This document shows, piece after piece, positions 23,869 through 57,565 of a stretch of 64,000 nucleotides of DNA (position 1 is its first letter; the number at the start of each line of letters is the position of its first letter). The position numbers and the translations under genes were made by a program. Source of the DNA: Myxococcales bacterium (GTDB lineage: Bacteria > Myxococcota_A > Polyangia > Polyangiales > Houyiibacteriaceae); the NCBI GenBank assembly GCA_024640845.1, contig JAHEEE010000004.1:14567-78566 (forward strand). Direction: 5' to 3'. A model generated the notes under the pieces. The model was given only the letters and a program-made list of their open reading frames with translations, was not told where the DNA came from and did not search any database.

Positions 23869-23881
23869 CGCAAAAAATGCG
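23869..23881. promoter_or_regulatory. Candidate enhancer (UAS) palindrome CGCA-N5-TGCG
   Basis: gaCGCAaaaaaTGCGcat, centred 82 bp upstream of the GG of the 23956 promoter. A degenerate partner CGCAagcatTTCC lies at 23898-23910. Confidence 0.55.
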
Positions 23882-23955: not shown

Positions 23956-23971
23956 TGGCACGCACTTTGCT
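23956..23971 (+). promoter_or_regulatory. Sigma-54 (-24/-12) promoter
   Basis: TGGCACGCACTTTGCT is a full match to TGGCACG-N4-TTGCW. It lies 22 nt upstream of the USP ATG at 23993. Confidence 0.7.
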
Positions 23972-23992
23972 CCAAGAGCTGTTCAGGTTTCG

Positions 23993-24472
23993 ATGAATCT
24001 CATGGGGTCTACCGTTCTTGCAGTCACGGATCTGACATCTGCGAGCTACAAGCTCGTGGGGTTCGCGGCCTTCATTGCGGGGCCGACCGACGGCGAGGTC
24101 GTGCTGGTGTCGACCTATGGCGGGGCTGGTGGGGGGCGACGTTCCGAGCCTCCGCCCAGTGAGCGCCGGAATCCAGATCGCTGGAGGGAAAAGGTCGAGG
24201 CGAGGCTCCGGCAGGAAGGCCAGCTCCTCGAGCGTCAGCGCCAGTGGTGCGCCGACCGCGGTGTGCGGTGCCGTGCCGAGCTCTACGAGGAAGGGCGGTG
24301 GCCCGATTTCGTGCTTCAGAGCGCCGAGCGCTCTCGTGTCGACCTGATTTTGGTGGGTATCCAACTGATGGCGTCCGCCGACCAGATCAGCGCCGCGGAT
24401 CTCAAGCGCCTCGTCGAGGACGCCCCGTGCCCGGTCAGCGTGGTGCGGCTTCCCGGCCTTTTTGCCTTCTGA
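23993..24472 (+). CDS. Universal stress protein (single, divergent USP domain)
   Basis: Starts 'MNLMGSTVLAVTD' and ends with 'VDLILVGIQ...APCPVSVVR', the USP hallmarks. The track ORF start at 23774 is an extension. Confidence 0.6.
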   Translation: MNLMGSTVLAVTDLTSASYKLVGFAAFIAGPTDGEVVLVSTYGGAGGGRRSEPPPSERRNPDRWREKVEARLRQEGQLLERQRQWCADRGVRCRAELYEEGRWPDFVLQSAERSRVDLILVGIQLMASADQISAADLKRLVEDAPCPVSVVRLPGLFAF

Positions 24473-24529
24473 GCGCCGGGGTCGCTTTGCGTGCTTGACA
24501 CCAAGGGCGCAATTTGTGAGCCACACCTC

Positions 24530-25708
24530 ATGGCCGACCCCAGCCTGCTCCCCACACTCCGCCAGTATGTGGGGTTTGACGATGCATCCGCTCAGCGCTT
24601 GCAGAGGCTCGCGCCGCGGATGCGTCGCTTCTACCAGGGCGTCGTGGACCAGTTCTACCAGGCGATTCTCGAAGACCCCGGCGCACGCGCGGTCCTGAAG
24701 AACGAAGCGCAGGTGAGCCGGCTCCAGGTCTCGTTGCGGGACTGGCTCGAAGGCCTGTTGTCTGGGCCCTACGATGAGCAGTACTTCGAGAAGCGCGCGC
24801 GAATCGGCCGCATGCACGTGAAGGTGGGGCTCGAGCAGCGGTACATGCTTTCCGCCATGAATGTGATTCGCGTGGGGTTGCACCGTGGTTTGTCGGAGAT
24901 CTCCACCCCCGGGCCGGCCCAAGTCCTCGATCACCGAGCCATCGACCAGATTTGTGACATCGAGCTCGCGATCATGCTCGAGACCTATCGAGAGGACTAT
25001 GTTCTCAAAAAGACGGCCGAGGCCGAGTCTCTCGCAGTGATGGGCCGGCTCACGGCAGGTTTGGCGCACGAGGTGAGGAATCCTCTCAACGCTGCCAAGC
25101 TTCAACTCGACGTGCTGCGACGCAATGCTGCGGCCGTGCAGGAGGAATCGACTCGACGCAAGATCGAGCGTCGCACCAATCTCGTACAGGACGAGCTTCG
25201 CAGGCTGTCACTCTTGCTAGACGACTTCCTCAACCTCGCGCGCGCGCGCAGACTCGACCCAGTGCGATGTGAAGCTGGTGCGCTACTCACCGAGGTCATC
25301 GAGCTTCGGCGTCCTGAGATCGAGTCGCAGGGTATCGAGTTCATCGACGACATCGACTGCGCCCCCTGTGAGCTCGATGCCGAGCGCGATCGCTTGAAGC
25401 AGGTGGTCAACAACCTGATCACGAACGCGGTCGAAGCCGTGGCCGAAAGCGGCCAACCGCGCATTCAAATCACCAGCCGCGCGGGCGGCGAGCGATGGGA
25501 GGTGGCGGTCATCGACAACGGGCCTGGCATCTCCCCCGAGGTCGGCGCTCGCGCGTTCGAGTCGTTCGTCACCACCAAGGACGCGGGCACGGGTCTCGGC
25601 TTGGCGATCGTCAAGCGAATCATCGATCTGCACGGCGGACGGGCCGCCCTGGCCCCGGAGCCGAGTGGCGGGACCCGCGCATCCTTCTGGATCCCATCCC
25701 GGGGCTAG
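24530..25708 (+). CDS. Globin-coupled sensor histidine kinase
   Basis: The N-terminal protoglobin/GCS domain ('RIGRMHVKVGLEQRYML') holds a candidate proximal His. It is followed by the HisKA H-box 'GLAHEVRNPLN' and HATPase_c motifs 'DNGPGI' and 'GTGLGLAIV'. Confidence 0.85.
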   Translation: MADPSLLPTLRQYVGFDDASAQRLQRLAPRMRRFYQGVVDQFYQAILEDPGARAVLKNEAQVSRLQVSLRDWLEGLLSGPYDEQYFEKRARIGRMHVKVGLEQRYMLSAMNVIRVGLHRGLSEISTPGPAQVLDHRAIDQICDIELAIMLETYREDYVLKKTAEAESLAVMGRLTAGLAHEVRNPLNAAKLQLDVLRRNAAAVQEESTRRKIERRTNLVQDELRRLSLLLDDFLNLARARRLDPVRCEAGALLTEVIELRRPEIESQGIEFIDDIDCAPCELDAERDRLKQVVNNLITNAVEAVAESGQPRIQITSRAGGERWEVAVIDNGPGISPEVGARAFESFVTTKDAGTGLGLAIVKRIIDLHGGRAALAPEPSGGTRASFWIPSRG

Positions 25709-25715
25709 AAGACAA

Positions 25716-27164
25716 CTAGTCGAGAGCGGGCGCTTGGTAACCCCACTCTTTGACGCGGTACTGGATCTTTCGTTGACTGATCCCGAGAATCTCGGCGGCT
25801 CGTGCCGTGGAGCCGTCGACTGCGTCGAGCGTGCGCAGGATCGCGATTCGTTCGAGCTCCGACATCGTGATGCCTGGAATCAGGGCCAAGATCGAACCAT
25901 CCTGCATGTCGCCGTGCGCAGAGGTTGGTAGGTCATCGCGTCGGATCAGATCGCCCTCGCACATGACCACAGCGCGCTCGATCGCATTCTCGAGCTCGCG
26001 CACGTTGCCGGGCCATGGGTAGATCATCAGGTGCTGCAGAGCCTCATCAGTGAGGCCCTTCACCGGCCGATCGTTCTCCTTGGCGTACTTGCGGAGGAAC
26101 CCTTGAGCCAGAAGCGGAATGTCGCTCCGCCGGACGCGGAGCGGTGGAACGTCTAGCTGGACGACCTTGAGCCGGTAGTAGAGGTCCTCTCGAAATCGAC
26201 CCTCATCCACGCGCTGCTTCAGGTTGCGGTTCGTCGCCGCGACTACGCGGACATCTACCTTGAGCGTTTCGTTGCCGCCAACGCGCTCGAACTCTCGCTC
26301 TTGGAGGAAGCGCAGAAGCTTGATCTGCACGCTCGGTGGGATTTCGCTGACTTCGTCCAGGAACAACGTGCCGCCATCGGCCTGTTTGAAGCGACCTTCA
26401 CGTCTACCCGCCGCGCCGGTGAAGGAGCCGCGCTCGTGACCGAACAGCTCCGACTCGAGGAGCGTCTCGCTCAGTGAGGCACAATTGAGCCGAATGAACG
26501 GTTTGTCTTTTCGCTTGGAATTCTGGTGGATCGCGGCCGCGATGAGCTCTTTGCCCGTCCCGGTTTCGCCGTGAATGAGCACCGTTGCGCGGCTCCCAGC
26601 CACCTGGGCGACGTTCTTCATCAGCCGTTGCATCGACGGGTGCTCGCCGATGATATTGCCGAACTGAAAGCGCTCGTCGACGCGCTGGCGAAGCTGGGCG
26701 GCTTCACGGCTAAGTCTCGTTCGCTCGAGCGCGCGGTCGACGATGGCGATGACAGCATCGAGCTCGAGTGGCTTGGTCAGATAGCTTTCCGCTCCGAGCT
26801 TGATCGCTTTGACCGCGGTATCGATCGTCGCGAATGCAGTCATCACGATGAAAGTCGCGTGCGGCGCGATCGGACGCCCCCGCTCGATGAGGGACAGCCC
26901 ATCCATTCCGGGCATCTTGAGATCAGTCAGTACGACGTCGGGGTCGGCTTGCTCCACCTGCAGCAGCGCAGTCCTCCCGTCGGCGGCGGTGCTCACCGAG
27001 TACCCAGCATCGTCGAGTAGCTCCGCGAGCGCGTTCCGCGCATTCGCCTCGTCGTCGACGACGAGGATCTTCCCTTTTCGTCCATCGGAACGCAGCGGGA
27101 GGGTTGTGGTCAGGTCGGATGCTGAGGCTGAGGTTACGCTTGTCATGGTATTTCTGTTCGGCAT
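25716..27164 (-). CDS. Sigma-54-dependent response regulator (NtrC-family bEBP)
   Basis: Has a REC domain ('KILVVDDE...VLTDLKMPGMDG'), an AAA+ domain with 'GETGTGKE' and 'GSFTGA' (a GAFTGA variant), and a C-terminal Fis-type HTH ('AAEILGISQRKIQYRVKEWG'). Confidence 0.93.
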   Translation of the reverse strand: MPNRNTMTSVTSASASDLTTTLPLRSDGRKGKILVVDDEANARNALAELLDDAGYSVSTAADGRTALLQVEQADPDVVLTDLKMPGMDGLSLIERGRPIAPHATFIVMTAFATIDTAVKAIKLGAESYLTKPLELDAVIAIVDRALERTRLSREAAQLRQRVDERFQFGNIIGEHPSMQRLMKNVAQVAGSRATVLIHGETGTGKELIAAAIHQNSKRKDKPFIRLNCASLSETLLESELFGHERGSFTGAAGRREGRFKQADGGTLFLDEVSEIPPSVQIKLLRFLQEREFERVGGNETLKVDVRVVAATNRNLKQRVDEGRFREDLYYRLKVVQLDVPPLRVRRSDIPLLAQGFLRKYAKENDRPVKGLTDEALQHLMIYPWPGNVRELENAIERAVVMCEGDLIRRDDLPTSAHGDMQDGSILALIPGITMSELERIAILRTLDAVDGSTARAAEILGISQRKIQYRVKEWGYQAPALD

Positions 27165-27175
27165 CTAGTTGGTGT

Positions 27176-28603
27176 CTAAGTCGGTGCGGAGGCTCCCTTG
27201 CCCCCCGAAATCTCAGGAGCTCTAGCGGCGGCGAGCTCCATGTACTCGGCGAACGCGTTCTCGAGGTCTTCGACGAATTCGTGGACGTCCGGGAACGATT
27301 CCCAATCCGCGTTGAACCCCCAGTGCAGGCCACCGTTATAGCTGAATAGCGCGATGCCGAGATTCTGGTTCCGCATCAGTGGCACCATCGGAAAAATGGC
27401 TTTCATCGGTGCGCCCAGGAGGTACAGCGGAAGCGGCGGTCCGGGCACGTTGGTGATGACGAGGTTGTAGGTGCGGAGCTGCATCGCAGCCTTGTAGAGC
27501 TCAGAGACGATGCGCTTGGTAGTGAGGTCCGCGATTTCTTCGATGAGCTCGGCGCCACCTGTCTGGTTGGACTCTTTCTTGAGCTTCGTCGTGATCGCGA
27601 TCACCTTCTTCAGCCGCTCGATCGGGTTGGGCTCGGAGATCGGCAAATCAGCGAGCAACATGGCGACGTGGTTGCCGCCGGACGCGCCGCCTACCTTGCG
27701 CGTGTTCACCGGCAGCATCGTTCGGAAGCCTTCGATCGCGTCGACGTCTTCATTGCGACGAATGAGGAAACGGCGGACCGCGCCGGTCGTGGTAGCGACC
27801 ACGACATCATTGATGGTGCCGCCAAGCGTGTTCTTGACCGCTTTGACGTCATCGAGCCGAAGTGACGTCCAGTCGAACCGCCGGTAGGGGCTGATGTCGC
27901 GCTCCGTGAACATGGTCTTGGGGGCCGGAATCATCCCTGACATGAGGAGACGGCGAACGCCTTGGAAGTTGTCGCGAACTCGAGGCATGAAGTGTGTAAG
28001 CTCGCGGATACCTTCCACCCGGTGCTTGAGCTCGGACCGGACGAGCTCGAGACGCCCTGGCGCAGGGCGAGGCTTCCATTCCTTGGGTACTCGCTCCTCT
28101 GCGTTCGGCATGATCTGCAAGAGAGCCTGGAGAAGCTCCACACCCGCGACGCCGTCGACCATGCAGTGGTGCACCTTGACCACGAGCGCAAACCTGTCGT
28201 TCTCGACGCCTTCGACGACCCAAAACTCCCAGAGTGGACGGCTGCGATCGAGATGCTGAGAAAACAGTCTTCCAACCAGCCGCTTCAGCGAACGCTCGTC
28301 GCCTGGCATCGGCAAACGGGTGTGTCGCAAGTGGAAGTGCATGTTGAACCGTTCGTCGTCGACCCACACCGGGTGTTTCAGGCCAGGCACGTACTCCACC
28401 CGCTGCCGGTAACGCGGGATCGAGTCGAGAGCGGCCTCGGTGTACCGCGTGAGTCGCTCGATATCGAGACCGCCATGATCCAACATCAGGGGTTTGGCAT
28501 CGAAGAGGAGGGCAGCGCCAACATGCATCGGCGCCGTCTTCGCTTCGACGTCCAGGAAGGTGGCGTCCAGGGCGCTCAAACGCTCGTGGAATGTATCCGG
28601 CAT
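27176..28603 (-). CDS. Wax ester synthase/diacylglycerol acyltransferase (WS/DGAT)
   Basis: Has the active-site motif 'HHCMVDGVAG' (HHxxxDG) and the N-terminus 'MPDTFHERLSALDATFLDVE'. Its stop is 11 nt upstream of the bEBP start. The track start at 28624 is a TTG lying inside the promoter. Confidence 0.9.
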   Translation of the reverse strand: MPDTFHERLSALDATFLDVEAKTAPMHVGAALLFDAKPLMLDHGGLDIERLTRYTEAALDSIPRYRQRVEYVPGLKHPVWVDDERFNMHFHLRHTRLPMPGDERSLKRLVGRLFSQHLDRSRPLWEFWVVEGVENDRFALVVKVHHCMVDGVAGVELLQALLQIMPNAEERVPKEWKPRPAPGRLELVRSELKHRVEGIRELTHFMPRVRDNFQGVRRLLMSGMIPAPKTMFTERDISPYRRFDWTSLRLDDVKAVKNTLGGTINDVVVATTTGAVRRFLIRRNEDVDAIEGFRTMLPVNTRKVGGASGGNHVAMLLADLPISEPNPIERLKKVIAITTKLKKESNQTGGAELIEEIADLTTKRIVSELYKAAMQLRTYNLVITNVPGPPLPLYLLGAPMKAIFPMVPLMRNQNLGIALFSYNGGLHWGFNADWESFPDVHEFVEDLENAFAEYMELAAARAPEISGGKGASAPT

Positions 28604-28619
28604 GGCAGCGGTCCTATCT

Positions 28620-28635
28620 AGCAAGATGCGAGCCC
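28620..28635 (-). promoter_or_regulatory. Sigma-54 (-24/-12) promoter candidate
   Basis: The minus strand reads GGGCTCGCATCTTGCT. GG-N10-GC spacing is correct, the -12 TTGCT is perfect, and the -24 reads GGGCTCG versus TGGCACG. Confidence 0.55.
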
Positions 28636-28689
28636 ATACGTGTTTCCAACAATATTGCGATTGACAGGTGTTCTCAGGCCCGCGGAGGG

Positions 28690-28732
28690 TGCAAACGATG
28701 CGTATGGCGTTTTAGGAGACGCATAATATGCG
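28690..28732. promoter_or_regulatory. Tandem UAS candidates (TGCA-N5-TGCG and CGCA-N5-TGCG)
   Basis: TGCAaacgaTGCG (28690-28702) and gaCGCAtaataTGCGcc (28720-28732) have centres 30 bp apart. They lie 62 and 92 bp upstream of the minus-strand -24 element. Confidence 0.55.
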
Positions 28733-28786
28733 CCACCCCTCCTCAACACCAGCCCTGTCGCTGAAGATCGGATAAATAGGAGGACG

Positions 28787-29221
28787 ATGTCTCAGCTTCT
28801 GACGCGAGAGTTGATGACCCAGCCGGTGATTACGGTCGGGCCAATGAGCCCTCTTCGTGAAGTGATCAACCTCATGGAGACCCACCGAGTTCGCCACGTA
28901 GCGGTGGTCGAGCCTGATACGGAACGCCTGCTCGGTTTGATTTCGCACCGCGATGTCTTGCGAAGCCAGGAGGGGAGCCTCTCTGGCTCGCCGTCAGAAG
29001 AACAAGTTCACATGAACCGGTGGATCGAAGCACGTTGGGTGATGACGAAAGAAGTGCGCACGGTCTATCCCGAAACACCCGCGCTCGAGGCAGCCCTCAT
29101 GTTGCGGTCACAGGGATATGGATGCGCACCTGTCGTCGAGCATGGTCGCTTGGTTGGCATCTTAACCGAGGCGGATTTCGTGGATTACGCAATTCGAATC
29201 TTGTCTGATCCAGGGGTCTGA
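28787..29221 (+). CDS. CBS-pair domain protein
   Basis: 144 aa with two CBS motifs ('HRVRHVAVV', 'GCAPVVEHGRLVGILTEADF'). An AGGAGG ribosome-binding site lies 5 nt upstream. Confidence 0.85.
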   Translation: MSQLLTRELMTQPVITVGPMSPLREVINLMETHRVRHVAVVEPDTERLLGLISHRDVLRSQEGSLSGSPSEEQVHMNRWIEARWVMTKEVRTVYPETPALEAALMLRSQGYGCAPVVEHGRLVGILTEADFVDYAIRILSDPGV

Positions 29222-29261
29222 TCGCCCGCACTCCTCTCCCGGCAGACCCGAGCTCCAAACC

Positions 29262-29277
29262 TGGCACGGTGCTTGCT
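29262..29277 (+). promoter_or_regulatory. Sigma-54 (-24/-12) promoter
   Basis: TGGCACGGTGCTTGCT is a full consensus match. The ATG of the tandem USP lies only 14 nt after the -12 C. Confidence 0.7.
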
Positions 29278-29289
29278 GCAGTATGGTGC

Positions 29290-30180
29290 ATGACCATCAA
29301 GACGATTGTCGTCGGCACCGATCTCGGCGAGTCCGGGCGGCGAGCGATGCAACTGGCGGTTCAAACTGCCCGAGCGACGAACGCAACGCTCTGGCTGGTG
29401 CATGCAAGCGAGGTCGGCTTGGAGCACGGACTGCGCGAGTCGCCGCTCGGCGTTGCCGCCCACGCGCTGCGCCAGCGGATCAAGGGACGCTTCGAGAGCT
29501 CGCTGCAGAAGCTCGAGAGCGAGCGCAGGGAATGCGAGACCGCGGGCTTGAGTTGCCAGACTTCGTGCGAAGAGGGTCAGCCGTGGGAGACGATCCTCCG
29601 AACGGCCGTTTCGGTCAACGCCGACCTGATCGCCGTTGGCGATCCGGCGGGCTCAATTGGCTTGCCCGAGCGGTTGCTCGGCTCGACCGCCGAACGGGTC
29701 GTGCGACAGGCGCCCTGCTCGGTCTTGGTGGTTTGCGGGCGGACTCGAGAGGACTACCAAGGAGCTCGCATCGCGGTCGGGGTCGACTTCTCGCCTCACG
29801 GCATCGAAGCGGTTCGCTGGGCCCGTGACGTGGCGAGCGCCGTCAACGGGGAGGTCGCCCTGTTTCACGTGGTCCCTCATCCGATCACCGAAACCATGCT
29901 GCCCACTGAATGGCCGAGCGTGCTGAGGGGGCTCGCTTCGGCTGCACATGCACGGCTCACCCAACTCGTCGTCAGTGAGGGGCTCGCACCCAATACCTCG
30001 ATTCGCGTGCTCGATGGCGCGGTTGGCAAGATGCTCTGCAATGCGGTCGCCGAAGCCGAGGCCGACTTGCTCTTCGTAGGCAGCAGGGGGCATGGGCGGC
30101 TGCGTGGCATCATGCTCGGAGACACCCCGCAGTACTGCCTGCGCTACTCTCCGGTGCCTGTGCTTGCCGTGCGTCCCTGA
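29290..30180 (+). CDS. Universal stress protein, tandem USP domains
   Basis: Starts 'MTIKTIVVGTDLGESG'. Contains 'ADLIAVG...APCSVLVV' and a second domain 'ARIAVGVDFS...ADLLFVGSRGHGRL...SPVPVLAV'. Confidence 0.9.
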   Translation: MTIKTIVVGTDLGESGRRAMQLAVQTARATNATLWLVHASEVGLEHGLRESPLGVAAHALRQRIKGRFESSLQKLESERRECETAGLSCQTSCEEGQPWETILRTAVSVNADLIAVGDPAGSIGLPERLLGSTAERVVRQAPCSVLVVCGRTREDYQGARIAVGVDFSPHGIEAVRWARDVASAVNGEVALFHVVPHPITETMLPTEWPSVLRGLASAAHARLTQLVVSEGLAPNTSIRVLDGAVGKMLCNAVAEAEADLLFVGSRGHGRLRGIMLGDTPQYCLRYSPVPVLAVRP

Positions 30181-30184
30181 TTCG

Positions 30185-31726
30185 TCAGGTCTCGAAGAGC
30201 GCCTCGAGTCGACGCCGATTCTCCTCGGCCGGCGCCGAGGTGTCGAGACGGACGTGCTCGGATTGCGGTAGCTCGTCGATGGGCTCGAAGCGTGCCTCGA
30301 ACTCGTCGAGCAGGTCGGTTCGCGCGTCGCTTTCATGGGTGCCGCGCGCCTCGCGCTTTGCCAAGCGTTCGAGCAGCAGATCGCGCGGGGCGACACATTC
30401 GACCATCGTGAAAGGCACTCCTTGCCGCGCCGCAAGCGCGCGCGCGGCCGCGCGCGTCGCCGCGCTCCGAAATGACGCATCGATCACCACAGGACGTCCC
30501 GAAGCGAGGACTGTGCTTGCCGCCAACCAGAGCTCGCGGTACACGGCGTCGCTTGCGCTTGGCGAATAAGCTCCGGACCACGCGCCACCCGGCAACGATG
30601 CCTCGGGCGCGACGCCCATGAGATGCTTGCGGGTGCGGTCCGAGCTCACCACTGGCGCGGCGAGCAGCTCCCCGAGGAAACCCGCTGTCCGGCTCTTCCC
30701 GCTCGCGATCATCCCGCCCACGGCGACGAGTCTGGGCGAGAGCAGCGGCGGACGCTCGTACGCCAGCGACAGCATGAAGTAGCGCCGCGCTTCGCGCTTT
30801 GCGCGATCTCGCGTCGCGGCGGACGTCTCCGGATCGGCTGCCAGGAAAGAGGCGATCTTTCCCCGAACGAAAGCGCGGTAGCTCTCGTAGAAGTCGACGA
30901 CCGAGTACAGTCCGTAGTCGTGCGTAGCTCGCGCGTAACGGGCGAGGAATCTCTCCGCGAGGTCGACACGTCCGTGCCATGCAAGATCCATCGACAGGAA
31001 CGCGATGTCGGCGCACACGTCGCCAAATCGAAAACGGTCGTTGAACTCGATGCAATCGATGATGGCGATCGAGCCATCAGGCTCGAAGTAGACGTGCTCT
31101 AGGCGTAGATCCCCGTGCCCGTCGCGCACGCGTTTCGACTTGATCCGTGCGTTGAAACGGGGCGCGTCGGCAAGTATGCCAAGTTGCCAAGCTTCGATTT
31201 CTCGCGCTTGCTCCGGCGTCAGGTACTCGCCAATCGCATCGCGTGTTTGCGCGAAGTTCTCTACTACGTTTTGGCGGATCGTGCTGACCTCGCCGTGCTT
31301 GGCCGTTTCGGCGTCGCACTTTGCGTGCGCGTGAAACTCCGCCACGTGGTCAGCAAGGTCGTCGATGCGCTCGGGCGAGAGGGACCCTTTGGTCAACAGA
31401 GTGTCGCCTCGGTCCTCGTCGGACAAACGGCGCATGTGAACCGCCCAGTCGACGATACGGCCCTCTCCATCGACTGCGTGCATGCCATCTTCATCGACTG
31501 TCACCGGTACTACCCCGAGATACACGTCGGGTGCGAGCCGCCGGTTGAGTCGCACCTCCGACTCGCAGGCTTGTCTTCTCGCGTCGATCGTCGTGAAATC
31601 GAGGAAGCCGAAATTCACCGGCCGCTTGACCTTGAACACCTCGGACTCCGCCAGAAAGACCCACGAGATGTGGGTCTCGATCAGCTCAAAGCCGCTTGCC
31701 TGAAGGTCTGTTTTCACTTGGCTCAT
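30185..31726 (-). CDS. Bifunctional phosphotransferase-fold (APH-like) / P-loop kinase (AAA_33-like) protein
   Basis: The N-terminal half is kinase-like ('HGDLRLEHVYF', 'IIDCIEFND'). The C-terminal half carries the P-loop 'VGGMIASGKS'. This is the same architecture that I recall for mycobacterial Rv2004c-type proteins. Confidence 0.7.
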   Translation of the reverse strand: MSQVKTDLQASGFELIETHISWVFLAESEVFKVKRPVNFGFLDFTTIDARRQACESEVRLNRRLAPDVYLGVVPVTVDEDGMHAVDGEGRIVDWAVHMRRLSDEDRGDTLLTKGSLSPERIDDLADHVAEFHAHAKCDAETAKHGEVSTIRQNVVENFAQTRDAIGEYLTPEQAREIEAWQLGILADAPRFNARIKSKRVRDGHGDLRLEHVYFEPDGSIAIIDCIEFNDRFRFGDVCADIAFLSMDLAWHGRVDLAERFLARYARATHDYGLYSVVDFYESYRAFVRGKIASFLAADPETSAATRDRAKREARRYFMLSLAYERPPLLSPRLVAVGGMIASGKSRTAGFLGELLAAPVVSSDRTRKHLMGVAPEASLPGGAWSGAYSPSASDAVYRELWLAASTVLASGRPVVIDASFRSAATRAAARALAARQGVPFTMVECVAPRDLLLERLAKREARGTHESDARTDLLDEFEARFEPIDELPQSEHVRLDTSAPAEENRRRLEALFET

Positions 31727-32918: not shown

Positions 32919-35900
32919 CTACAACCACTTCTGAATATGCATTCCGAGCGCCGCTGGCCTCATCGGCGCTCGGTTCCTTGGGAGTACCCGGAAGCGAAGC
33001 TCGTGGCCGCCGCTTGCTCTCACGGCGAAGGCGCCTCGCCAGGTGCTGCGGTTTTCGGCGCCCTCCGATTCAAAGGAGACGACGATCCGGGATGACGGCT
33101 CGTTCTTTTTTCGGCCGAACGAGACGACCGCTTCGACCTCGAGGTCTCGGGCGTCGAGCCCGGGATGGTGGAGCGTCAACTCGGCCGAGACGTGCGTCCC
33201 GACGACGATCTCGTTGCTGCTCAGACCTCCAAAGCGCACGCTCTCCATCGTGATGTCGTTCCAGTGCGTGCGGACTTCTTCGGCAACGTCGGCGAGGGCG
33301 AAGAGTGGACGATAGTTCGACTCGCGAAGCGCGATCGCATCTTGCATGGCGGGCTCATAGAACATGTCCGCATAGTTCGTGAGCATTCGACGGGACGAGA
33401 AACGCGGAATGATGCTCGCCATGCTCGCCTTCATGCGTTCGACCCACGCGACCGGCACGCCCTCCGCATTGCGATCGTGGTACTCGGGCAGAATTTCGCC
33501 CTCGAGCAGCGCCATCGTGATCGCACGGTCGTACGCGCTCGGATCGTGAATCGAAGACGAGGGCAGGTCGATTACCCAGCCATTATCCCCTTGGTAGCCC
33601 TCGAGCCACCAACCGTCATCGACGCTGAGGTTCACACAGCCGTTCATGGCGGCTTTCATACCCGAGGTGCCGCTCGCTTCGAGCGGGCGCGTTGGCGTGT
33701 TTAGCCAGACGTCGCACCCGGCAACCATCCGGCGCGCCTCGTCGATCGAGTAGTCCTCCATGACGATGACGCGGCCCGCAAGCGAGGGGTGCTTCGAAGC
33801 CTGGTAGACTCGCTGGAGGAGCGCCTGGCCATGCCCATCGGCCGGGTGGGCCTTGCCGGCATAGATCATCGTGGCGCCCAGGGTGCCTTCGAGGAGCTTG
33901 GCAAGGCGCTCGGGATCGGCCAGCAACAAGTCGGCGCGCTTGTACGGGGCAAAGCGCCGCGCAAAGCCGATCAGCAGACGGTCCTCGTCGAGGTGGTCGA
34001 GGATGTCCCGCAGCAGCGACAGGTCTTCGCGACGCCTCGTCCAACTCTGGGTCAGGTGCTCTTTCAGCCAGTCGATGTAGTCGGCGCGCAGCTCGCGATG
34101 AATCGACCAAATCTCAGCCGGGTCGTGTTTGCGGAGCCACTTCCACTGGAACCGATCTTCGATCCTGTTGCGCCAATCGTGCCCCATCTCGCGCTCGAAG
34201 AGGCGTTGCCATCGCGGCGCCACCCAGGTCGAGACGTGGACGCCGTTGGTGATGCTGGTGCAAGGGACGTCGTCTGCGTCGTCGAGCTCGGGATAGAACT
34301 GGAGAAACATGTTGCGGGCGACTTCACCGTGCTTCGCGCTCACGCCGTTGATCCGCTCGCAGTTTCTCACGGCGAGCGCGGTCGTGCCGAACTCGTTCGG
34401 AGCGCCGTTTGGTGTATTGCCGATCGCCATCAGGCGCGGCCAATCCATACGAAGCACGTGCTCGAAGCGCGTCAGATACGGGCGCACCATCTCTTCGGGG
34501 AAGTGGTCGTGCCCTGCTGGCACCGGAGTGTGTGTCGTAAAGACAGTCGTGTTGCGGATGTACTCGAATGCTTCTCGTGACCTGAGACCGTGGCGCTGAA
34601 TCAAGTGAGCCGCGCGCGCGATGATCAAGAACGCGCTGTGCCCCTCGTTCATGTGGAACACGTCTGGCTCGATATCGAGCTCGGTCAGCATTTGGTATCC
34701 GCCGAGGCCCAGGATCATCTCTTGACGCAGACGATGCGCAGAGTCGCCGCCGTAAAGACGGTTGGTAATCGCTCGGTCCTCCGGACGGTTCTCGGGCAGG
34801 TTGGTATCGAGCAAGAACAGCGGCACCCGTCCGACCTCGAGTCGCCAAGCGCTCACTTGCACGGGCCCAGTCGGCAGTGGAACCGTCACCCTGAGCGGCG
34901 CGTACTGACCAGCCATCACCTGCTTGAACGGCGGGCTCCCGAAGTCGTTGGTGTCGCTGAGGTGCTCTTGGTGTCCGTCCCGGTCGATCATTTGGCGGAA
35001 GTAGCCATCATGGTAGGCCAGGCCAACGGCGCACAAAGGCAAGTCCAAGTCGCTGGCGGCCTTCAGATGGTCGCCGGCGAGAATGCCGAGGCCGCCCGAA
35101 TAGAGCTTCAGAAACCCAGCGATGCCGAACTCCATGCAGAAGTACGCAATTCTAGGGTCCTTGGCCTGCGTCGCCTCGGACATCTCGCGAGCGGACCGTG
35201 CAACGTCGGCGACGTAGCCTTCGTCCAACGCGAGGTTCATCAAACGCTCGGGCTTGACCTGATCGAGAAGAGCGTGCGGGTTCTCTTCGAGTTTGAACCA
35301 CAGCTCGGGATCGATCTTCTTGAACAAGGAGGCGACTTCGGGGTGCCAGCGCCACCAGAGATTGGCGGCGATGTCTTGAAGCGGTCGCAGCTCGCTCGGG
35401 AGCGCGTTGGTCACCGAGAAGGTGCGAGTGTAGGGGGCGGCCTCCTCGCCCTCCTTGGCGGGAGGGATCACGAATGCACCGAAGACGCCGGAATCTCCCG
35501 AGATCGTTGGCGTCGACGGGACGCTCAGCCGCTCCATGGGCAGTTCCTTGCGTCGGGCTGCGCCGGCCTCCAGCGCGAGCTGGTGTGCCCGCTCATAGTG
35601 CTCCATGAAGTTCGACCAGTCGGTCAGCGCCGCGGTTTCGAGCGAAGCTTGCCCGAGAGCTTCGCGATCCTCGGGTGGCAGATCGATGAACTCGAGCATG
35701 GCCTTCTTGAGGACGTCGCTCACCTCGTCGAAGGACACTCCCTCGCGCTTGAGCACGCGAACACCGGTGCGCTTGCCTTCGCCAAGTGAGGCGGCCCAGC
35801 GCCCGAATCCGGCGCGGTCGGTCGTGATCGCGGGGACCCCGAAGGCCACGGCCTCGAGCGGCGTGTAGCCCCACGGTTCGTAGAAGGAGGGGAATACGCC

Positions 35901-37172
35901 GAGGTCCGCCCCGGGAAGGAGGTCCCAGTACTTCTGGCGAATCAATAGGTCGGTGCCGTCGAGGTAGATCGGGACATGCACGACGTGCACGGGTGCGCCG
36001 TGCGTGTTCTCGACGCCCAACGCGTTGAGCTGATTGGTGATCGGATCGTTCGCCTCGTCGACCAGGTCGTGCGTGCAGCGCAGTGGCGACCCCGCCGCGG
36101 AGCCATGCGCGCGATCCCACAGCGCGCGCTTCGGCTCTGCGTGACCGGCCGGAAGCATGGCATATACGATCACCCGTTTGCCGTCGCGAGACGCAAGCTC
36201 TTCCGGTAGGCCGAAGGCTGCCTCGAAGTAGACGTCCACGCCCTTGTTGACGTACTCGTATCGGCCGGCGAGCGCGAAGATGAGCGTCTTTTCGCGGTCG
36301 TATCGGTCGCCGGTCGTGAGCTCTGCGAGCTTGAAAAGCTCCTCTCTCGCCTGCTGGCGTTGCTCGTGAGCGACTGGTTTGGCGCCAAACCCGTTGGGCA
36401 GAATCACGTCTGGCGTTCGGCCTAACAGATACCGGCATTCGAGCGCGGTGATCTCGCTAACGGTCGTGAAGACGTCTGCCTCGCGCGCCGCGACGGATTC
36501 CATCGAATGCTTCGACGAGACGTTGAGCTCTTTCGCGGCCACTTCCGGGTCGACGTTCGGCAGCGATTGGTAGAAGTTCGGGTCTGCGCGGCGTCCTGCC
36601 AGCGAGCGTCCGAGCATCGTTGCATGGGTCGTGAACACCGTGCCGATCTCAGGCGCCGCCGTCTGGAGGTGTAGAATCGCGGCGGCGGACATCCACTCGT
36701 GGGCCTGCACGAGGGCTTTCTGCCGTCCGGGCAGCAGGAAACGGTCACGAATGTGTTCGATGATCATGCCTGCCGCGTGTGCAAACAAGACCGGGTCGTA
36801 GTAGTCCCAGGCGCCGAACAACGAATCGAGCCCGTACTTCTCCCAGTAGCGGCCGAGAATCTCGTCCTTGCGCGGGTAGAGGCTCGAGTGATTGATCAGC
36901 AGGCACCGAGGCTCCCCTGGCACGAGCCAACGGCCCATCTCGATCCCGATCTCGTGGTCTCGAAGCGATTCGGCAAGCGCGCTATCCCAAATATCGGGGC
37001 GAAACTCGGGGGCGACCCCCTCGGCGCGTGGGACGTCGGGGCCGATCGTGATGTATCGGTCTTCGCCGTGGCGCTGCTGAACCTCCGGGACGCGGCTCGC
37101 CAACACGGTGTGGATACCGCCCACCATGTTGCAGACTTCCCAGGAGATTTCGAAGAACACCGCTCTGCTCAT
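32919..37172 (-). CDS. Fusion protein: GT3 (eukaryote-type) glycogen synthase + GT35 alpha-glucan phosphorylase
   Basis: 1417 aa. The N-terminus 'FFEISWEVCNMVGGIHTVL' resembles the GT3 glycogen synthase N-terminus. The C-terminal half has 'YFCMEFGI', 'GGLGILAGDHLKAASDL' and the PLP-Lys motif 'EASGTSGMKAAMNG' of alpha-glucan phosphorylases. Confidence 0.85.
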   Translation of the reverse strand: MSRAVFFEISWEVCNMVGGIHTVLASRVPEVQQRHGEDRYITIGPDVPRAEGVAPEFRPDIWDSALAESLRDHEIGIEMGRWLVPGEPRCLLINHSSLYPRKDEILGRYWEKYGLDSLFGAWDYYDPVLFAHAAGMIIEHIRDRFLLPGRQKALVQAHEWMSAAAILHLQTAAPEIGTVFTTHATMLGRSLAGRRADPNFYQSLPNVDPEVAAKELNVSSKHSMESVAAREADVFTTVSEITALECRYLLGRTPDVILPNGFGAKPVAHEQRQQAREELFKLAELTTGDRYDREKTLIFALAGRYEYVNKGVDVYFEAAFGLPEELASRDGKRVIVYAMLPAGHAEPKRALWDRAHGSAAGSPLRCTHDLVDEANDPITNQLNALGVENTHGAPVHVVHVPIYLDGTDLLIRQKYWDLLPGADLGVFPSFYEPWGYTPLEAVAFGVPAITTDRAGFGRWAASLGEGKRTGVRVLKREGVSFDEVSDVLKKAMLEFIDLPPEDREALGQASLETAALTDWSNFMEHYERAHQLALEAGAARRKELPMERLSVPSTPTISGDSGVFGAFVIPPAKEGEEAAPYTRTFSVTNALPSELRPLQDIAANLWWRWHPEVASLFKKIDPELWFKLEENPHALLDQVKPERLMNLALDEGYVADVARSAREMSEATQAKDPRIAYFCMEFGIAGFLKLYSGGLGILAGDHLKAASDLDLPLCAVGLAYHDGYFRQMIDRDGHQEHLSDTNDFGSPPFKQVMAGQYAPLRVTVPLPTGPVQVSAWRLEVGRVPLFLLDTNLPENRPEDRAITNRLYGGDSAHRLRQEMILGLGGYQMLTELDIEPDVFHMNEGHSAFLIIARAAHLIQRHGLRSREAFEYIRNTTVFTTHTPVPAGHDHFPEEMVRPYLTRFEHVLRMDWPRLMAIGNTPNGAPNEFGTTALAVRNCERINGVSAKHGEVARNMFLQFYPELDDADDVPCTSITNGVHVSTWVAPRWQRLFEREMGHDWRNRIEDRFQWKWLRKHDPAEIWSIHRELRADYIDWLKEHLTQSWTRRREDLSLLRDILDHLDEDRLLIGFARRFAPYKRADLLLADPERLAKLLEGTLGATMIYAGKAHPADGHGQALLQRVYQASKHPSLAGRVIVMEDYSIDEARRMVAGCDVWLNTPTRPLEASGTSGMKAAMNGCVNLSVDDGWWLEGYQGDNGWVIDLPSSSIHDPSAYDRAITMALLEGEILPEYHDRNAEGVPVAWVERMKASMASIIPRFSSRRMLTNYADMFYEPAMQDAIALRESNYRPLFALADVAEEVRTHWNDITMESVRFGGLSSNEIVVGTHVSAELTLHHPGLDARDLEVEAVVSFGRKKNEPSSRIVVSFESEGAENRSTWRGAFAVRASGGHELRFRVLPRNRAPMRPAALGMHIQKWL

Positions 37173-45928: not shown

Positions 45929-45944
45929 TGCAAAGAATGCGCCA
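45929..45944 (-). promoter_or_regulatory. Sigma-54 (-24/-12) promoter for the hemerythrin operon
   Basis: The minus strand reads TGGCGCATTCTTTGCA, with correct spacing and a perfect -12 TTGCA. Confidence 0.65.
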
Positions 45945-46059: not shown

Positions 46060-46075
46060 TGGCACGAAGCTTGAT
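46060..46075 (+). promoter_or_regulatory. Sigma-54-like promoter candidate (non-canonical -12)
   Basis: TGGCACGAAGCTTGAT has a perfect -24 TGGCACG, but the -12 reads TTGA instead of TTGC. It lies 17 nt upstream of the USP ATG at 46091. Confidence 0.4.
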
Positions 46076-46090: not shown

Positions 46091-46570
46091 ATGGACCAGC
46101 CTCGAACGATTCTCGTCGGTACCGACTTCTCCGACATCTCGGACGAAGCGTTGCGAGCGGCGTCTCTCTACGCCAGGACCTTCAACTCCCGCGTGCTCGT
46201 TACCCATATTTTCGACCCGACTCCCAACGTTCCGCCAGTGGTCTGGTCCCGTCCGGACCTTCTGGAGCGCAGCATCCGCATCGAAATCGAGGATGCCATC
46301 CGCGAAACTCTGACCGGCAAGACCGCGGAGTTGTTGAAGGGGGTCTCCGAGGTCGAGCTCAGCGTGGTTCAGCATCCTTCCCCAGGCCGGGCGCTCGTCG
46401 AGATCGCCGAAGACGAAGAAGTGGATCTCGTCATCCTGGGCTCGCACGGTCGGAGTGGCCTATCGCGGGCCTTCCTCGGCAGCGTCGCCGAGCGAGTCGT
46501 TCGACATGCGCCGTGCCCCGTATTGGTGGTGCGGGGTCGTTGTGACCACGAGCCGAAGCACGGAGAATAG
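46091..46570 (+). CDS. Universal stress protein
   Basis: Starts 'MDQPRTILVGTDFSDISDEAL' and contains 'VDLVILGSHGRSGL...APCPVLVV'. Confidence 0.9.
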   Translation: MDQPRTILVGTDFSDISDEALRAASLYARTFNSRVLVTHIFDPTPNVPPVVWSRPDLLERSIRIEIEDAIRETLTGKTAELLKGVSEVELSVVQHPSPGRALVEIAEDEEVDLVILGSHGRSGLSRAFLGSVAERVVRHAPCPVLVVRGRCDHEPKHGE

Positions 46571-51686: not shown

Positions 51687-54082
51687 GGGCGCCCTCGTCG
51701 CGACAGCATCATCACCGTATACGCGAGCGTGATGAGTGAGCTGAGCGGCATTAGCACAGCTGCGACCCATGGTTTCATCAAACCCGCCATGGCGATCGAT
51801 ACAGCGACCAGATTGTATGCGATTGCAAACGCGAGTATGCGACGCACCACGTGCGCCAGCGAATCCGAGGCGCGCAAGACTTGCGCCACTGGGTGCAAGC
51901 CTGGGGACACGAAGTAGAAGTCACATCGCGAGGCCATGAACGGTCGATCGACTGCAGGAGTACCCGAACAAGCCGCCTCTCTCATCGCGACTTGGTCGTT
52001 CAAGCCATCGCCCACCAGCAAAGTCCGTGCCGGATCGTGCTCACGCACATACGCGGCCTTTTGTTCAGGGCTCTTCCCGCCGATACACCTGCTCTCGGGC
52101 ATGCCGAGGCTGGCGCCGAGGGTCGTCACACGCTGCTGCCCATCCCCACTGAGGATCGCGAGCTCGTACCCCCGCTGCTCGAGCTTGTCGATTTCGTCGC
52201 GAGCGCCGGGTCGAAGCTGCTCATCGGTGGTGATGCTCGCGAGCACTTTCCCATTCGCAGAGAAGACGACGTCGCCGTCGCTCCTTGCGGGGCCCGCCGC
52301 CCACTCCGGCGCGCCGAGCCGGTAGTCGATGTCGGCCCGCCGGGCCGAGATCCCATAGCCGGTGTGCTCTTCGGCCTCGATCTCGGCGAAGCGCGCGGCG
52401 GGATGCCCTTCGAGCGCGCGCCGAACGGCGACGCTCTTCGGGTGCGCGCTGCGGGCCGCCATGTTGTAGACGACGGCAATCTCCGCGTCCGCGAGGCGTC
52501 TCAACGGGGCCGGATCGACCACCTCGAGGACCCCGGTCGTCAACGTTCCCGTCTTGTCGAACACGATCCGGGTCATCGAGCGGACCCGGTCGAGAAAATC
52601 GCCTACGCGCACGAAGATGCCAAGGCGTCGGAGCTGGGTGAGGACCAGCTCGTACGCGAGCGGAGCGGCGATGCCGAATGCGCAGGGGCAGGTCACCACG
52701 AGGACCGCGGTGCCGACCTCGATTGCGCGGAGCGGCTCGCCGCTTCGCCACCACCAGAAGCCGATCGCGGCGCTCGCCAGCGTAATGACGCCGACGACGT
52801 AATAGCGTGAGAGCCGCGACCACCACTCGGACGCCAAGGGTCCGTCTCCTTTGTTCGCCGGGTCACTCCCGAGGAGGCCCACCAATGACGAAGCCGCAAA
52901 GTCGCTCAATGCAACCCCGGAGAACGCGCGTTCGCCGACGTTGAAAGCGCCGGCTGGGATGGTGTCGCCCCCCTCGAATCTTCGCGGTCGGCTCTCTCCG
53001 TCGATCCAGTCGAGCGAGCAGCGCACCGTGTCGTCGACGACCCGAAGATCGACGGGCACGAGATCCCCGGGTGCGATCAGCAAGCGATCCCCATTGCGGA
53101 TTCCGATGCAATGCACGATGCGAACGACGCCGTCCTTCACCTCGCGCGTGAGCAGGCTTTCGGTGCCGTCATCCGCGAGCAGCTGGGCGCGGTTGCGTTC
53201 GAGCATGCGCTGCTGGAGCCAACGGCCGACCAACATCAGCGCGACGAACACGGTCAGCGTGTCGATGTAGGCCGCTTCTCCCGAAGCGAAGAAGAACGAC
53301 CACGTCGAGCCGATGAAGGCGAGAACGATGCCGAGCGCGATGGGCACGTCGAGGTGCAGGATGCCCCGCCGAACTGCACGCGCGGCCGAGCCGATGAAGA
53401 CCGACCCGCCCACCAGCACCGCGAGCACGCCGGCGGCATAGCTCAAGTCGTTGAGGATCTCGTAGACGGGCCCCTCGCGAAGGCCGAGATAGATTGCGGC
53501 GGCGAACAGCATGACGTTCATGGCGAGCGCGGCGCAGATGCCGACGCGCAACAGAAGGTCGTCAGAAGGGCGCGCGCCTGTCGAACGGGCGGGGCCGAGC
53601 AGGTAGCCAAGGCCCTCGACCGAATCGACCCAATCGGAGAGCGGGAACTCTGGCGGGATGCGGAGCTCGATGCGGCCGAGCGCCGGGTTGATGGTCATGA
53701 GCCCGGCCTGCGCCCCCCCTTGGCGGCGAAACAGCTCCTCGACGAGCCAAACGCAGGCTGCGCAGTGGATCCCCTGGATGTCCAGCTCGACGCGAGAGAG
53801 ACCTCGTTCGTGGGCCCGCGCCTCCTCGATCAGCTCGAGCCACTTGTGATCGATGTGACGCGCATCGAGATCGGCAGGCGGAAGACCGGGGCCACTTCGC
53901 AGGTCGTAGTAGCGCGTCAGCCCGGCTTTGTTGAGGATGGCGTGCACCGCCCGGCACCCGCGGCAGCAGTACGGGGCGAATGCGTCGCTGACCAGCGGTT
54001 GCGCGCAGTGCACACAACGCGAGCCGGCGTGGAGTGGTTCCCCGAGCGTGGTCTCACAGACAGCGGGTTGAGGAGCGGTCAC
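51674..54082 (-). CDS. ccoI: Copper-translocating P1B-type ATPase (CcoI/FixI-like)
   Basis: Contains 'DKTGTLT', a 'CPC' TM motif, an N-terminal Cys-rich region, and an HMA-like motif 'HCAACV'. It sits within the cco cluster. Confidence 0.9.
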   Translation of the reverse strand: MTAPQPAVCETTLGEPLHAGSRCVHCAQPLVSDAFAPYCCRGCRAVHAILNKAGLTRYYDLRSGPGLPPADLDARHIDHKWLELIEEARAHERGLSRVELDIQGIHCAACVWLVEELFRRQGGAQAGLMTINPALGRIELRIPPEFPLSDWVDSVEGLGYLLGPARSTGARPSDDLLLRVGICAALAMNVMLFAAAIYLGLREGPVYEILNDLSYAAGVLAVLVGGSVFIGSAARAVRRGILHLDVPIALGIVLAFIGSTWSFFFASGEAAYIDTLTVFVALMLVGRWLQQRMLERNRAQLLADDGTESLLTREVKDGVVRIVHCIGIRNGDRLLIAPGDLVPVDLRVVDDTVRCSLDWIDGESRPRRFEGGDTIPAGAFNVGERAFSGVALSDFAASSLVGLLGSDPANKGDGPLASEWWSRLSRYYVVGVITLASAAIGFWWWRSGEPLRAIEVGTAVLVVTCPCAFGIAAPLAYELVLTQLRRLGIFVRVGDFLDRVRSMTRIVFDKTGTLTTGVLEVVDPAPLRRLADAEIAVVYNMAARSAHPKSVAVRRALEGHPAARFAEIEAEEHTGYGISARRADIDYRLGAPEWAAGPARSDGDVVFSANGKVLASITTDEQLRPGARDEIDKLEQRGYELAILSGDGQQRVTTLGASLGMPESRCIGGKSPEQKAAYVREHDPARTLLVGDGLNDQVAMREAACSGTPAVDRPFMASRCDFYFVSPGLHPVAQVLRASDSLAHVVRRILAFAIAYNLVAVSIAMAGLMKPWVAAVLMPLSSLITLAYTVMMLSRRGRPWRS

Positions 54083-56255: not shown

Positions 56256-57565
56256 AGCTCGTCACCTCACACGAGAACACCGACTTCGATGGGCTGGCCT
56301 CGTGTGTAGCGCTTCAGAAGCTCCTGCCAGGGGCCGTGATTGGCCTCAGCGGCGGGTTCGCCTCGAACGTCCACCAGTACCTGACGCTCCACAGGGATCG
56401 GTTTCGCGTCGAGCGTTGTGAGGATCTCGATTTGTCCGAGGTCGATCTCCTCGCCGTGACCGACGTTCGAAAGCGCCATCGCCTCGCGCATGTCGAGCCG
56501 GTGTTCCAGCGAGCCGTCGACAACCCGCGAAGCGTGCGCGTCATCGTGTGGGATCACCATCCGGCGTCGCCCGACGATCTTCATGCTGACGAAGAGCACG
56601 TGCAGCCGGTCGGCTCGGTCACCACGTTGCTCGTCGAGGAGCTCCGAGCGCGCGGGATCGAGATCGACCGGAAAGAGGCGACCCTGTTTTCGCTCGGCAT
56701 TCACGAGGACACCGGATCGCTCTCGTACGCCCGTTCGAGCTCGCGGGATGCCACGGCTCTGGCTTGGCTCCTCGGACACGGCGCACAACCGGCTCTCCTG
56801 CAGCGATTCCTTCGACCCGCGCTCAACGGAATGGAACGCGACTTGCTGGTTCGACTGATCGACGGTGTGAAGGAACTGCCGCGATTCGGGGTCTCGATCG
56901 GGGTCTCGGCGTTGGAAACCGAAGAAGTCCCCGCGAGTCTCGCGCTCGTCTCGACCGAGGCGTTTCGCATTCTGTCTCACGACGCGCTCTTTTGCATCTA
57001 TCGCTTGCCCAACGGCAAGTCGCACATCGTCGGCCGTGCTCAAGCCAACGCGGTGCCCATTGGTGCGATCCTCGAAAGGCTCGGTGGGGGAGGGCACGCC
57101 GGCGCCGGCTCGGCGTCGGTTCACGGTCTCTCGCTCGACGAGATCGTGAGTCGCCTCGAGGAAGGCGTCGACCGTTGCTGCCTCCAGCCGCAGTTCGTAC
57201 GCGACCTCATGTCGAGCCCTGTTCGCACGGTCGGCCCCGGCACACCACTTTCCGAGCTCGCGAGCTCGTTGCGCGAGTGGGGGCATACCGGTGCCCCGGT
57301 CGTCGTCGATGGGCAACTCGTCGGGGTCGTTTCACGCCGCGACGTCGAGCGCGCGCAACGCGAAGGCCGAGGCCATCTCGCTGTGAAGAGCTGCATGGCG
57401 CACCATGTCTCGAGCATCGGTCCCGACGCGCCGCTCCAAGAAGCCCTCGAGCAGATGCAGACGCACAACATCGGCCGGCTCCCGGTGCTCGATGGGACGC
57501 GGGTGATCGGCATCCTTTCCCGCGAGGACGTTCTCGGATATCTCTACGAGCAGTCGCCCTGCTGA
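56252..57565 (+). CDS. DHH/DHHA1 phosphoesterase fused to a C-terminal CBS pair
   Basis: GTG start overlaps the previous stop (GTGA). Contains 'HENTDFDGLAS', 'WDHH' and 'GGGGHAGAG', followed by two CBS motifs. Confidence 0.8.
   Translation: MKLVTSHENTDFDGLASCVALQKLLPGAVIGLSGGFASNVHQYLTLHRDRFRVERCEDLDLSEVDLLAVTDVRKRHRLAHVEPVFQRAVDNPRSVRVIVWDHHPASPDDLHADEEHVQPVGSVTTLLVEELRARGIEIDRKEATLFSLGIHEDTGSLSYARSSSRDATALAWLLGHGAQPALLQRFLRPALNGMERDLLVRLIDGVKELPRFGVSIGVSALETEEVPASLALVSTEAFRILSHDALFCIYRLPNGKSHIVGRAQANAVPIGAILERLGGGGHAGAGSASVHGLSLDEIVSRLEEGVDRCCLQPQFVRDLMSSPVRTVGPGTPLSELASSLREWGHTGAPVVVDGQLVGVVSRRDVERAQREGRGHLAVKSCMAHHVSSIGPDAPLQEALEQMQTHNIGRLPVLDGTRVIGILSREDVLGYLYEQSPC

Follow-up and report, generated by a model that had tools for sequence, protein, structure and literature searches.

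Sigma-54 promoter motifs at a short, conserved distance from the start codons of universal stress protein and WS/DGAT genes in a Myxococcales bacterium

A stretch of 64,000 nucleotides (nt) from a Myxococcales bacterium (GenBank assembly GCA_024640845.1, contig JAHEEE010000004.1, positions 14,567 to 78,566), in the following called the window, was analysed for sigma-54 promoter motifs that nearly touch start codons. Two of them precede the divergent genes for a tandem universal stress protein (USP) and for a wax ester synthase/diacylglycerol acyltransferase (WS/DGAT). The comparison with relatives supports the view that both putative promoters are strongly conserved and lie very close to verified ATGs, at a distance that hardly varies, in 41 to 45 other genomes. 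They are probably genuine enhancer-dependent sigma-54 promoters, at which the RNA polymerase would start on the AUG or within about 0-6 nt of it. A leader of 0-6 nt and a translation independent of a Shine-Dalgarno (SD) sequence appear as a well motivated mechanism; the label leaderless is a prediction from the -24/-12 rule and the comparison of genomes. The central features have the following window positions:

29262-29277, plus strand: sigma-54 promoter of the tandem USP gene, TGGCACGGTGCTTGCT, with GG at 29263-29264 and GC at 29275-29276, an exact consensus match
29277-29289, plus strand: spacer of the tandem USP gene, a 13-nt gap to the ATG at 29290, no SD sequence
29290-30180, plus strand: tandem universal stress protein, 296 amino acids (aa), two Usp domains (Pfam, E=8.6e-50)
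28635-28620, minus strand: sigma-54 promoter of the operon of the WS/DGAT gene and an enhancer-binding protein (EBP) gene, GGGCTCGCATCTTGCT, with GG at 28634-28633 and GC at 28622-28621
28604-28620, minus strand: spacer of the WS/DGAT gene, a 17-nt gap to the ATG at 28603, predicted leader of about 6 nt
27176-28603, minus strand: WS/DGAT, 475 aa (Pfam WS_DGAT_cat, E=7e-69)

Promoter motifs and their spacing in relatives

The gap was counted in nucleotides from the C of the -12 GC to the start codon, both excluded. For the predicted leader, the transcription start site (TSS) was placed 12 nt past this C, the same rule as used for E. coli (PMC4591121). Membership in the sigma-54 class was judged by a spacing of exactly 10 nt between the GG and the GC doublet in TGGCACG-N4-TTGCW. 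The motif at 29262 and another one at 23956 matched exactly; the 28620-28635 promoter had two mismatches to the consensus with both doublets intact, and an element at 46060 deviated by a GA in place of the GC. For the tandem USP gene the rule predicts a leader of 2 nt with a TSS near 29288, possibly the A at 29290, and for the WS/DGAT gene a leader of 6 nt in the window and of 5 nt in most relatives. The 23956 promoter has a gap of 22 nt to the ATG at 23993 (predicted leader of about 11 nt), the 46060 element one of 16 nt to the ATG at 46091 (predicted leader 5 nt). Thus the four motifs and distances named in the sequence-only reading were reproduced, with leaders of 2, 6, 11 and 5 nt. The same reading had contrasted them with the hemerythrin, cco and glycogen promoters, which have leaders and SD sites. 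Taken as controls, these were found as described: gaps of 38 nt for hemerythrin (GGGAGG), 38 nt for DsbD_2 of the cco cluster (GAGG) and 61 nt for the glycogen debranching enzyme (AGGGGG). The additional promoters are:

23956-23971, plus strand: sigma-54 promoter of the USP gene 23993-24472 and of a kinase gene, TGGCACGCACTTTGCT, exact consensus
46060-46075, plus strand: sigma-54-like element upstream of the USP gene 46091-46570, TGGCACGAAGCTTGAT, with GA instead of GC at -12
45929-45944, minus strand: sigma-54 promoter upstream of the hemerythrin gene, which served as a control with a leader

The motif is enriched in the window. Eight sites matched TGGCACN5TTGCW with at most one mismatch, versus 1.26 +/- 1.07 in shuffled sequences, and none of 100 shuffles reached eight; with at most two mismatches 38 sites were present versus 23.4 expected. 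Three one-mismatch sites lie in coding regions, at 52017-52032 (minus strand), 56832-56847 (plus strand) and 62942-62957 (plus strand), one of them in the region of the GDGxND motif of a FixI-type ATPase. They may have arisen by chance or may be binding sites inside genes, as is seen in E. coli.

A scan with one genome per species yielded 45 orthologous loci with a USP identity of 66-85 %. All belong to uncultured Myxococcota/Polyangiales, and the sequences are related, so the counts given below do not represent independent events. The surroundings of the USP gene were largely syntenic, with the WS/DGAT gene in 41 loci, a gene for a CBS-pair protein in 39, an NtrC-type activator gene in 36, the first USP gene in 32 and the kinase gene in 27. 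The USP promoter was present as the 16-mer TGGCAyGNNGCTTGCT in all 45 loci, with a mean pairwise identity of 0.90. The 30 nt upstream and the 12 nt that separate the promoter from the ATG both had an identity of 0.35, the first 30 coding nucleotides one of 0.77. The gap was 13 nt in 29 loci, 14 nt in 13 and 15 nt in four, hence within 13-15 nt in 46 of 46 cases and never shorter. The WS/DGAT promoter tGGGCTCACATyTTGCTAG was conserved in 41 loci with a gap of 13-17 nt in 40 of them (16 nt in about 30 loci, 17 nt in four including the window, 13-15 nt in six), the remaining locus having 24 nt.

Two further genes of the neighbourhood carry such promoters in relatives. The CBS gene is preceded by TGGCAyGGAACATGC 13-15 nt before the ATG in 23 relatives, and the activator gene by its own sigma-54 promoter, TGGCACrnCAACTGC, 13-17 nt before the ATG in about 13. 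This activator promoter (e.g., in L006, L012, L016 and L024) lies in or just past the 3' end of the WS/DGAT gene, before a start reading ATG ACT AGT. The activator gene of the window has no sigma-54 promoter of its own, the corresponding place being occupied by TTAGACACCAACTAG, and its protein may start at the second ATG (27146).

Across about 120 promoter-gene instances (USP, WS/DGAT, CBS and activator) the gap was never below 13 nt. Such a floor is expected if selection shortened the leader while the AUG had to stay inside the transcript. It suggests that the TSS would lie no later than position 14 past the GC; with a 13-nt gap this position falls on the A of the ATG. The base at -1 of the USP ATG was C or T in 43 of 45 unique sequences; a pyrimidine stood at -1 in about 94 % of all start-proximal cases versus about 47 % of the cases with leaders. 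This bias fits an initiation with a pyrimidine at -1 and a purine at +1 on the A of the AUG. Base composition past the GC was considered as a guide for placing the TSS as well and proved ambiguous.

Start codons and Shine-Dalgarno sequences

The short distances would lose their meaning if the start codons were mis-assigned and the promoters lay inside or far upstream of the true coding start. Mechanically called open reading frames (ORFs) indeed reach upstream to a GTG at 29269 and a TTG at 28624, and a few database entries use extended starts. These longer USP versions begin with (M)VLA and four residues ahead of the Met, that is, the extension merely reads the -12 element GTG-CTT-GCx as the codons V-L-A. 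The N-terminus M-x-IKTIVVGTD was found in 120 USP homologs among the matches listed, with an invariant M and a variable second residue, and the start was an ATG in 45 of 46 loci. The spacer of 13, 14 or 15 nt shifts the upstream reading frame among relatives, and an in-frame stop is located just upstream of the USP ATG, without an intervening start, in 26 of 43 orthologs. For the WS/DGAT gene the start ATGCCGGAnAC is conserved. Both extensions were ruled out by the frame shifts, the in-frame stops and the missing conservation; later starts have no room, since the Pfam domains begin at about residue 4 (USP) and residue 9 (WS/DGAT). A mis-assignment is therefore highly improbable, and the sequence-only reading was right to dismiss it.

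The triplet at -6 to -4 of the USP ATG (29284-29286 in the window) has the form T-R-R and keeps its position relative to the ATG, not to the promoter. At least 22 of 43 orthologs have an in-frame stop there (TGA, TAA or TAG), and three, including the window, have TGG. A selection for a stop codon at this place was considered and rejected, as 22 stops versus three TGG fit a plain T-R-R nucleotide preference.

SD sequences were scored as one of the 4-mers GGAG, GAGG or AGGA at -20 to -4. They were present in ten of 94 start-proximal pairs with a gap of at most 18 nt (USP 1/30, CBS 2/15, WS/DGAT 5/36, activator 2/13) and in 34 of 36 pairs with leaders, i.e., a gap of at least 25 nt (hemerythrin 23/24, a 111-aa protein 8/8, activator 3/4). 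The hemerythrin promoter keeps a gap of 36-39 nt in relatives. In the window, an AGGA is located 8 nt before the ATG at 28603; it is not conserved in relatives and was rejected as an SD sequence. The earlier statement that none of the four start sites has a visible SD sequence stands for 29290. It needs correction for 28603, with this unconserved AGGA, and fails for 46091, which has GGAAGGG 5 nt before the ATG.

The CBS gene shows the relation between spacing and SD sequence within a single gene family. GGAGG was present in one of the 23 relatives with a promoter gap of 13-15 nt and in all four with one of 34-57 nt. The sole exception, L045, has a 15-nt spacer and a degenerate CBS promoter. 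Its SD sequence fits into the 15-nt spacer, so that the promoter does not force the lack of one elsewhere. In the window the sigma-54 promoter of the CBS gene is destroyed (CTGTCGCTGAAGATCGG) and AGGAGG is positioned before the ATG. Hence three states of this gene occur: a near promoter without SD sequence, a far promoter with GGAGG, and AGGAGG without promoter as in the window (28750-28786); examples among the relatives are L014, L027, L039 and L045. The CBS gene of L001 resembles a leaderless form with an adjacent -10 element, as TAATAT precedes its ATG by 7 nt. As a natural construct series of near promoters without and far promoters with SD sequence, the CBS gene makes the question directly testable.

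As a rival explanation, the sigma-54 promoters may be real while the proteins are made mainly from longer transcripts, originating from CBS-USP read-through or another upstream promoter. Initiation would then be SD-independent on an unstructured start region, and the short sigma-54 transcripts would be poorly translated or have another role. No terminator-like site was found between the CBS and the USP gene, and the SD-like purine run at the 46091 start is usable only by a longer transcript. Dual sigmaA and sigma-54 promoters are known for ahpC of M. xanthus (PMC12754779). The search of 28560-29330 revealed no sigma-70-type promoter, no Rfam RNA and no terminator, and neither intergenic region yielded a sigma-70-type promoter. 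An SD sequence could have evolved in the free spacer, as in L045 and before the CBS gene of the window, yet is absent in 84 of 94 start-proximal cases. Longer transcripts also leave the hard 13-nt floor and the tight spacing unexplained. We consider this explanation rather unlikely, with a chance that deserves to be kept in mind.

A classical leaderless gene with an adjacent sigma-70 -10 box was considered as well and rejected for want of a sigma-70-type site in the intergenic regions. A TANNNT hexamer about 6-8 nt before the start codon was not found, and the 12 nt before the USP ATG are unconserved (identity 0.35).

A predicted regulatory circuit and the points against it

Myxococcota encode sigma-54. 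An activator, a sensor kinase and candidate activator sites are located near the tandem USP gene, together with the CBS gene:

25716-27164, minus strand: NtrC-type response regulator, a sigma-54 enhancer-binding protein (Pfam Response_reg, Sigma54_activat, HTH_8)
24491-25708, plus strand: globin-coupled sensor histidine kinase (Pfam Protoglobin, HisKA, HATPase_c)
28787-29221, plus strand: CBS-pair protein (Pfam CBS), with the SD sequence AGGAGG at 28778-28783
28720-28732: palindrome CGCATAATATGCG, candidate upstream activating sequence (UAS), about 85 nt upstream of the -24 element of the WS/DGAT promoter
23869-23881: CGCA-N5-TGCG palindrome, candidate UAS of the 23956 promoter

The activator gene is located directly downstream of the WS/DGAT gene on the same strand; its Sigma54_activat match has an E-value of 7.4e-75, and the GAFTGA-type loop is present as GSFTGA in the translation. 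The globin-coupled kinase is likely the partner of this EBP. The palindrome CGCA-N5-TGCG had 13 copies in the window versus 3.99 expected. Seven copies of 13 nt each, at 23869, 28720, 42000, 42030, 45976, 46005 and 54901, are positioned 30-110 nt upstream of sigma-54 promoters. Five promoters have the palindrome upstream; the nearest copies to the 29262 promoter are 540 nt upstream or intragenic. In relatives it usually occurs as a pair 30 bp apart in the intergenic region of the WS/DGAT and CBS genes. A role as activator binding site is plausible. The copies inside the USP gene at +175 and +240 were considered as a downstream enhancer and discarded, as they are inseparable from the coding constraint on R-K-x-C-E.

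From these parts the following course can be proposed. The globin-coupled kinase, presumably reporting O2, would phosphorylate the NtrC-type activator, which would bind CGCA-N5-TGCG and remodel the sigma-54 holoenzyme pre-bound at the -24/-12 elements. The mRNA of the tandem USP gene would start about 0-2 nt and that of the WS/DGAT-activator operon about 3-6 nt before the AUG. Without room for a ribosome-binding site, these mRNAs would be translated on the SD-independent, 5'-AUG-dependent (leaderless) route. The exact TSS, the dependence on the kinase/activator pair and on O2 and the mode of translation are what we infer; the conserved promoters, the secure ATGs, the relation of SD sequences to spacing and the activator parts together support a start at or near the AUG.

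The elements might also bind the sigma-54 holoenzyme without acting as promoters; a closed complex covering the start codon would then be repressive or act as a roadblock. Stable closed complexes are a known property of this holoenzyme, and for many of its sites in E. coli no productive transcription is known (PMC4591121). However, the elements are always oriented towards the gene, activator-type palindromes are located upstream, the cognate activator is encoded in the operon, and in some relatives the same element 34-57 nt upstream pairs with an SD sequence, as a promoter would. A roadblock function is thus very improbable.

Several observations weigh against transcription starting at or near the AUG. 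The 12-nt rule gives leaders of 2-6 nt for the two central promoters, not of zero, and a few extra 5' nucleotides reportedly weaken leaderless translation in E. coli. Promoters of both kinds, leadered or not, have purines at positions 10-11 past the GC; a start at these would give the USP gene a leader of 3-4 nt. Due to this ambiguity the leader is stated as 0-6 nt and not as zero. The lack of a terminator between the CBS and the USP gene makes longer read-through mRNAs possible, and the relatedness of the orthologs reduces the weight of their number. Finally, USP3, the USP gene behind the 46060 element, has a conserved SD-like run which a canonical sigma-54 start would exclude.

The latter element was kept in 33 metagenome loci (L051-L085), including its -12 GA (TTGATA), with a gap of 16-20 nt. 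Most of these loci have a purine run (GGGG or GAGG) 6-10 nt before the ATG, and an SD 4-mer was present in 16 of 23. A longer transcript may serve this gene as well, or the purine run may belong to the promoter; with its SD-like run and its non-canonical -12 GA the element may work differently altogether. In L051 (Ga0316576_10040086) the USP3 protein was 100 % identical to that of the window, which points to the same organism in that metagenome sample. The 23956 promoter was kept in about 28 loci with a gap of 19-22 nt, which predicts a leader about 8-11 nt long; a clear SD sequence is lacking. Such an mRNA would have a short leader, but would not be leaderless; in some relatives the Met of codon 4 could be the start of this USP gene. 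Of the near-leaderless class proposed for all four promoters, the part on 29262 and 28620 is upheld by the conserved short spacing in 41-45 genomes and the lack of a conserved SD sequence. The part on 23956 and 46060 gives way to a leader of about 8-11 nt and to an SD-like run, respectively. Taken together, the interpretation is supported for the two promoters in 28603-29292 and extends to the CBS and activator genes in relatives, while it is weakened for the two outlying ones.

Gene neighbourhood and comparison with known systems

The regions 23956-31726 and 32919-54816 harbour the globin-coupled kinase, the NtrC-type activator, five USP genes, the WS/DGAT and the CBS-pair protein, furthermore hemerythrin, genes for glycogen synthesis and debranching and a cbb3 oxidase with FixG, FixI and DsbD_2. 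At 32919-37172 (minus strand) an ORF of 1417 aa combines a glycogen synthase-like N-terminal part with DUF3417 and a phosphorylase domain. The homologs of the USP were named as proteins of Myxococcales or Polyangiales metagenome-assembled genomes. The window reads as a low-oxygen/dormancy island with a gene content like the DosR regulon, but wired via sigma-54.

A broader proposition would be that in a marine and soil clade of the Myxococcota sigma-54 promoters fire onto the AUG and produce true leaderless mRNAs for a low-oxygen/dormancy regulon of USPs, WS/DGAT, CBS-pair protein and activator. Transcription and translation would be switched as one unit, and the genes would toggle in evolution with an SD-led form. 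This proposition is tentative and, in our estimate, has the odds against it. If true, a sigma-54 leaderless regulon would be described here for the first time, and the most tightly gated form of transcription in bacteria would be joined to SD-independent translation in a stress and dormancy programme. The usual mark by which people and gene finders identify a leaderless gene is a -10 box beside the ATG, whose place is taken here by a signature of another kind, a conserved -24/-12 box. This has consequences for gene callers, as some database entries extend proteins into the promoter (MVLA... N-termini), and predictors of sigma-54 regulons that expect 5' untranslated regions could miss such promoters.

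Among the 42 intergenic sense sigma-54 sites of E. coli, no protein-coding gene has a predicted TSS closer than 18 nt, the shortest distances being those of rutA (18 nt), hypA (20 nt) and zraS (21 nt); the small RNA glmY has 1 nt (PMC4591121). The genes studied here share with this regulon the GG-N10-GC consensus and a cognate activator of the NtrC family with its sensor kinase, and they have candidate activator sites upstream. They differ in the distance, usually 25-90 nt for protein genes in E. coli and 2-6 nt here by the same rule, and in the absence of an SD sequence. A leaderless mRNA from a promoter of sigma-54, RpoN or an enhancer-binding protein was not described in the literature searched, whose coverage was incomplete and amounts to no proof. 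Together with the E. coli minimum of 18 nt this bears out the earlier remark that such an arrangement is unusual.

Published leaderless genes are tied to -10-type elements in Deinococcus-Thermus (PMC12340547) and in Actinobacteria. In Bradyrhizobium an extended -10 element, TGnTA, is located upstream of leaderless mRNAs, and the authors of the B. japonicum study stated that no specific promoters had previously been described for leaderless genes (PMC4842269). The likeness to -10-adjacent leaderless genes comprises a promoter at a fixed minimal distance from the ATG, the absence of an SD sequence, the AUG start and the conservation among relatives. The difference is a -24/-12 sigma-54 promoter in need of an ATP-driven activator, without TANNNT.

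The PexR system of M. xanthus is a stress regulon driven by a bacterial EBP (bEBP) and sigma-54, with palindromic UAS repeats, and a leaderless mRNA (at most 5 nt) was proposed for pexR with a sigmaA-type promoter (PMC12754779). This myxobacterial bEBP/sigma-54 stress regulon resembles the present one, with its palindromic candidate UAS, also in the proposal of a leaderless mRNA. However, pexR with its proposed leaderless mRNA uses the sigmaA-type promoter, and the sigma-54 promoters of ahpC and katB were not described as leaderless.

The mycobacterial DosR regulon comprises tandem and single USPs, a WS/DGAT (tgs1-like), a CBS-pair protein (hrp1-like) and a haem-based O2 sensor kinase, and mycobacteria use leaderless mRNAs widely. 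It is controlled by a response regulator of the LuxR type, at promoters of the sigma-70 family. With the DosR side taken from general knowledge, the two systems are alike in gene content and unlike in their control, which here would involve a globin-coupled kinase, an NtrC-type activator and sigma-54.

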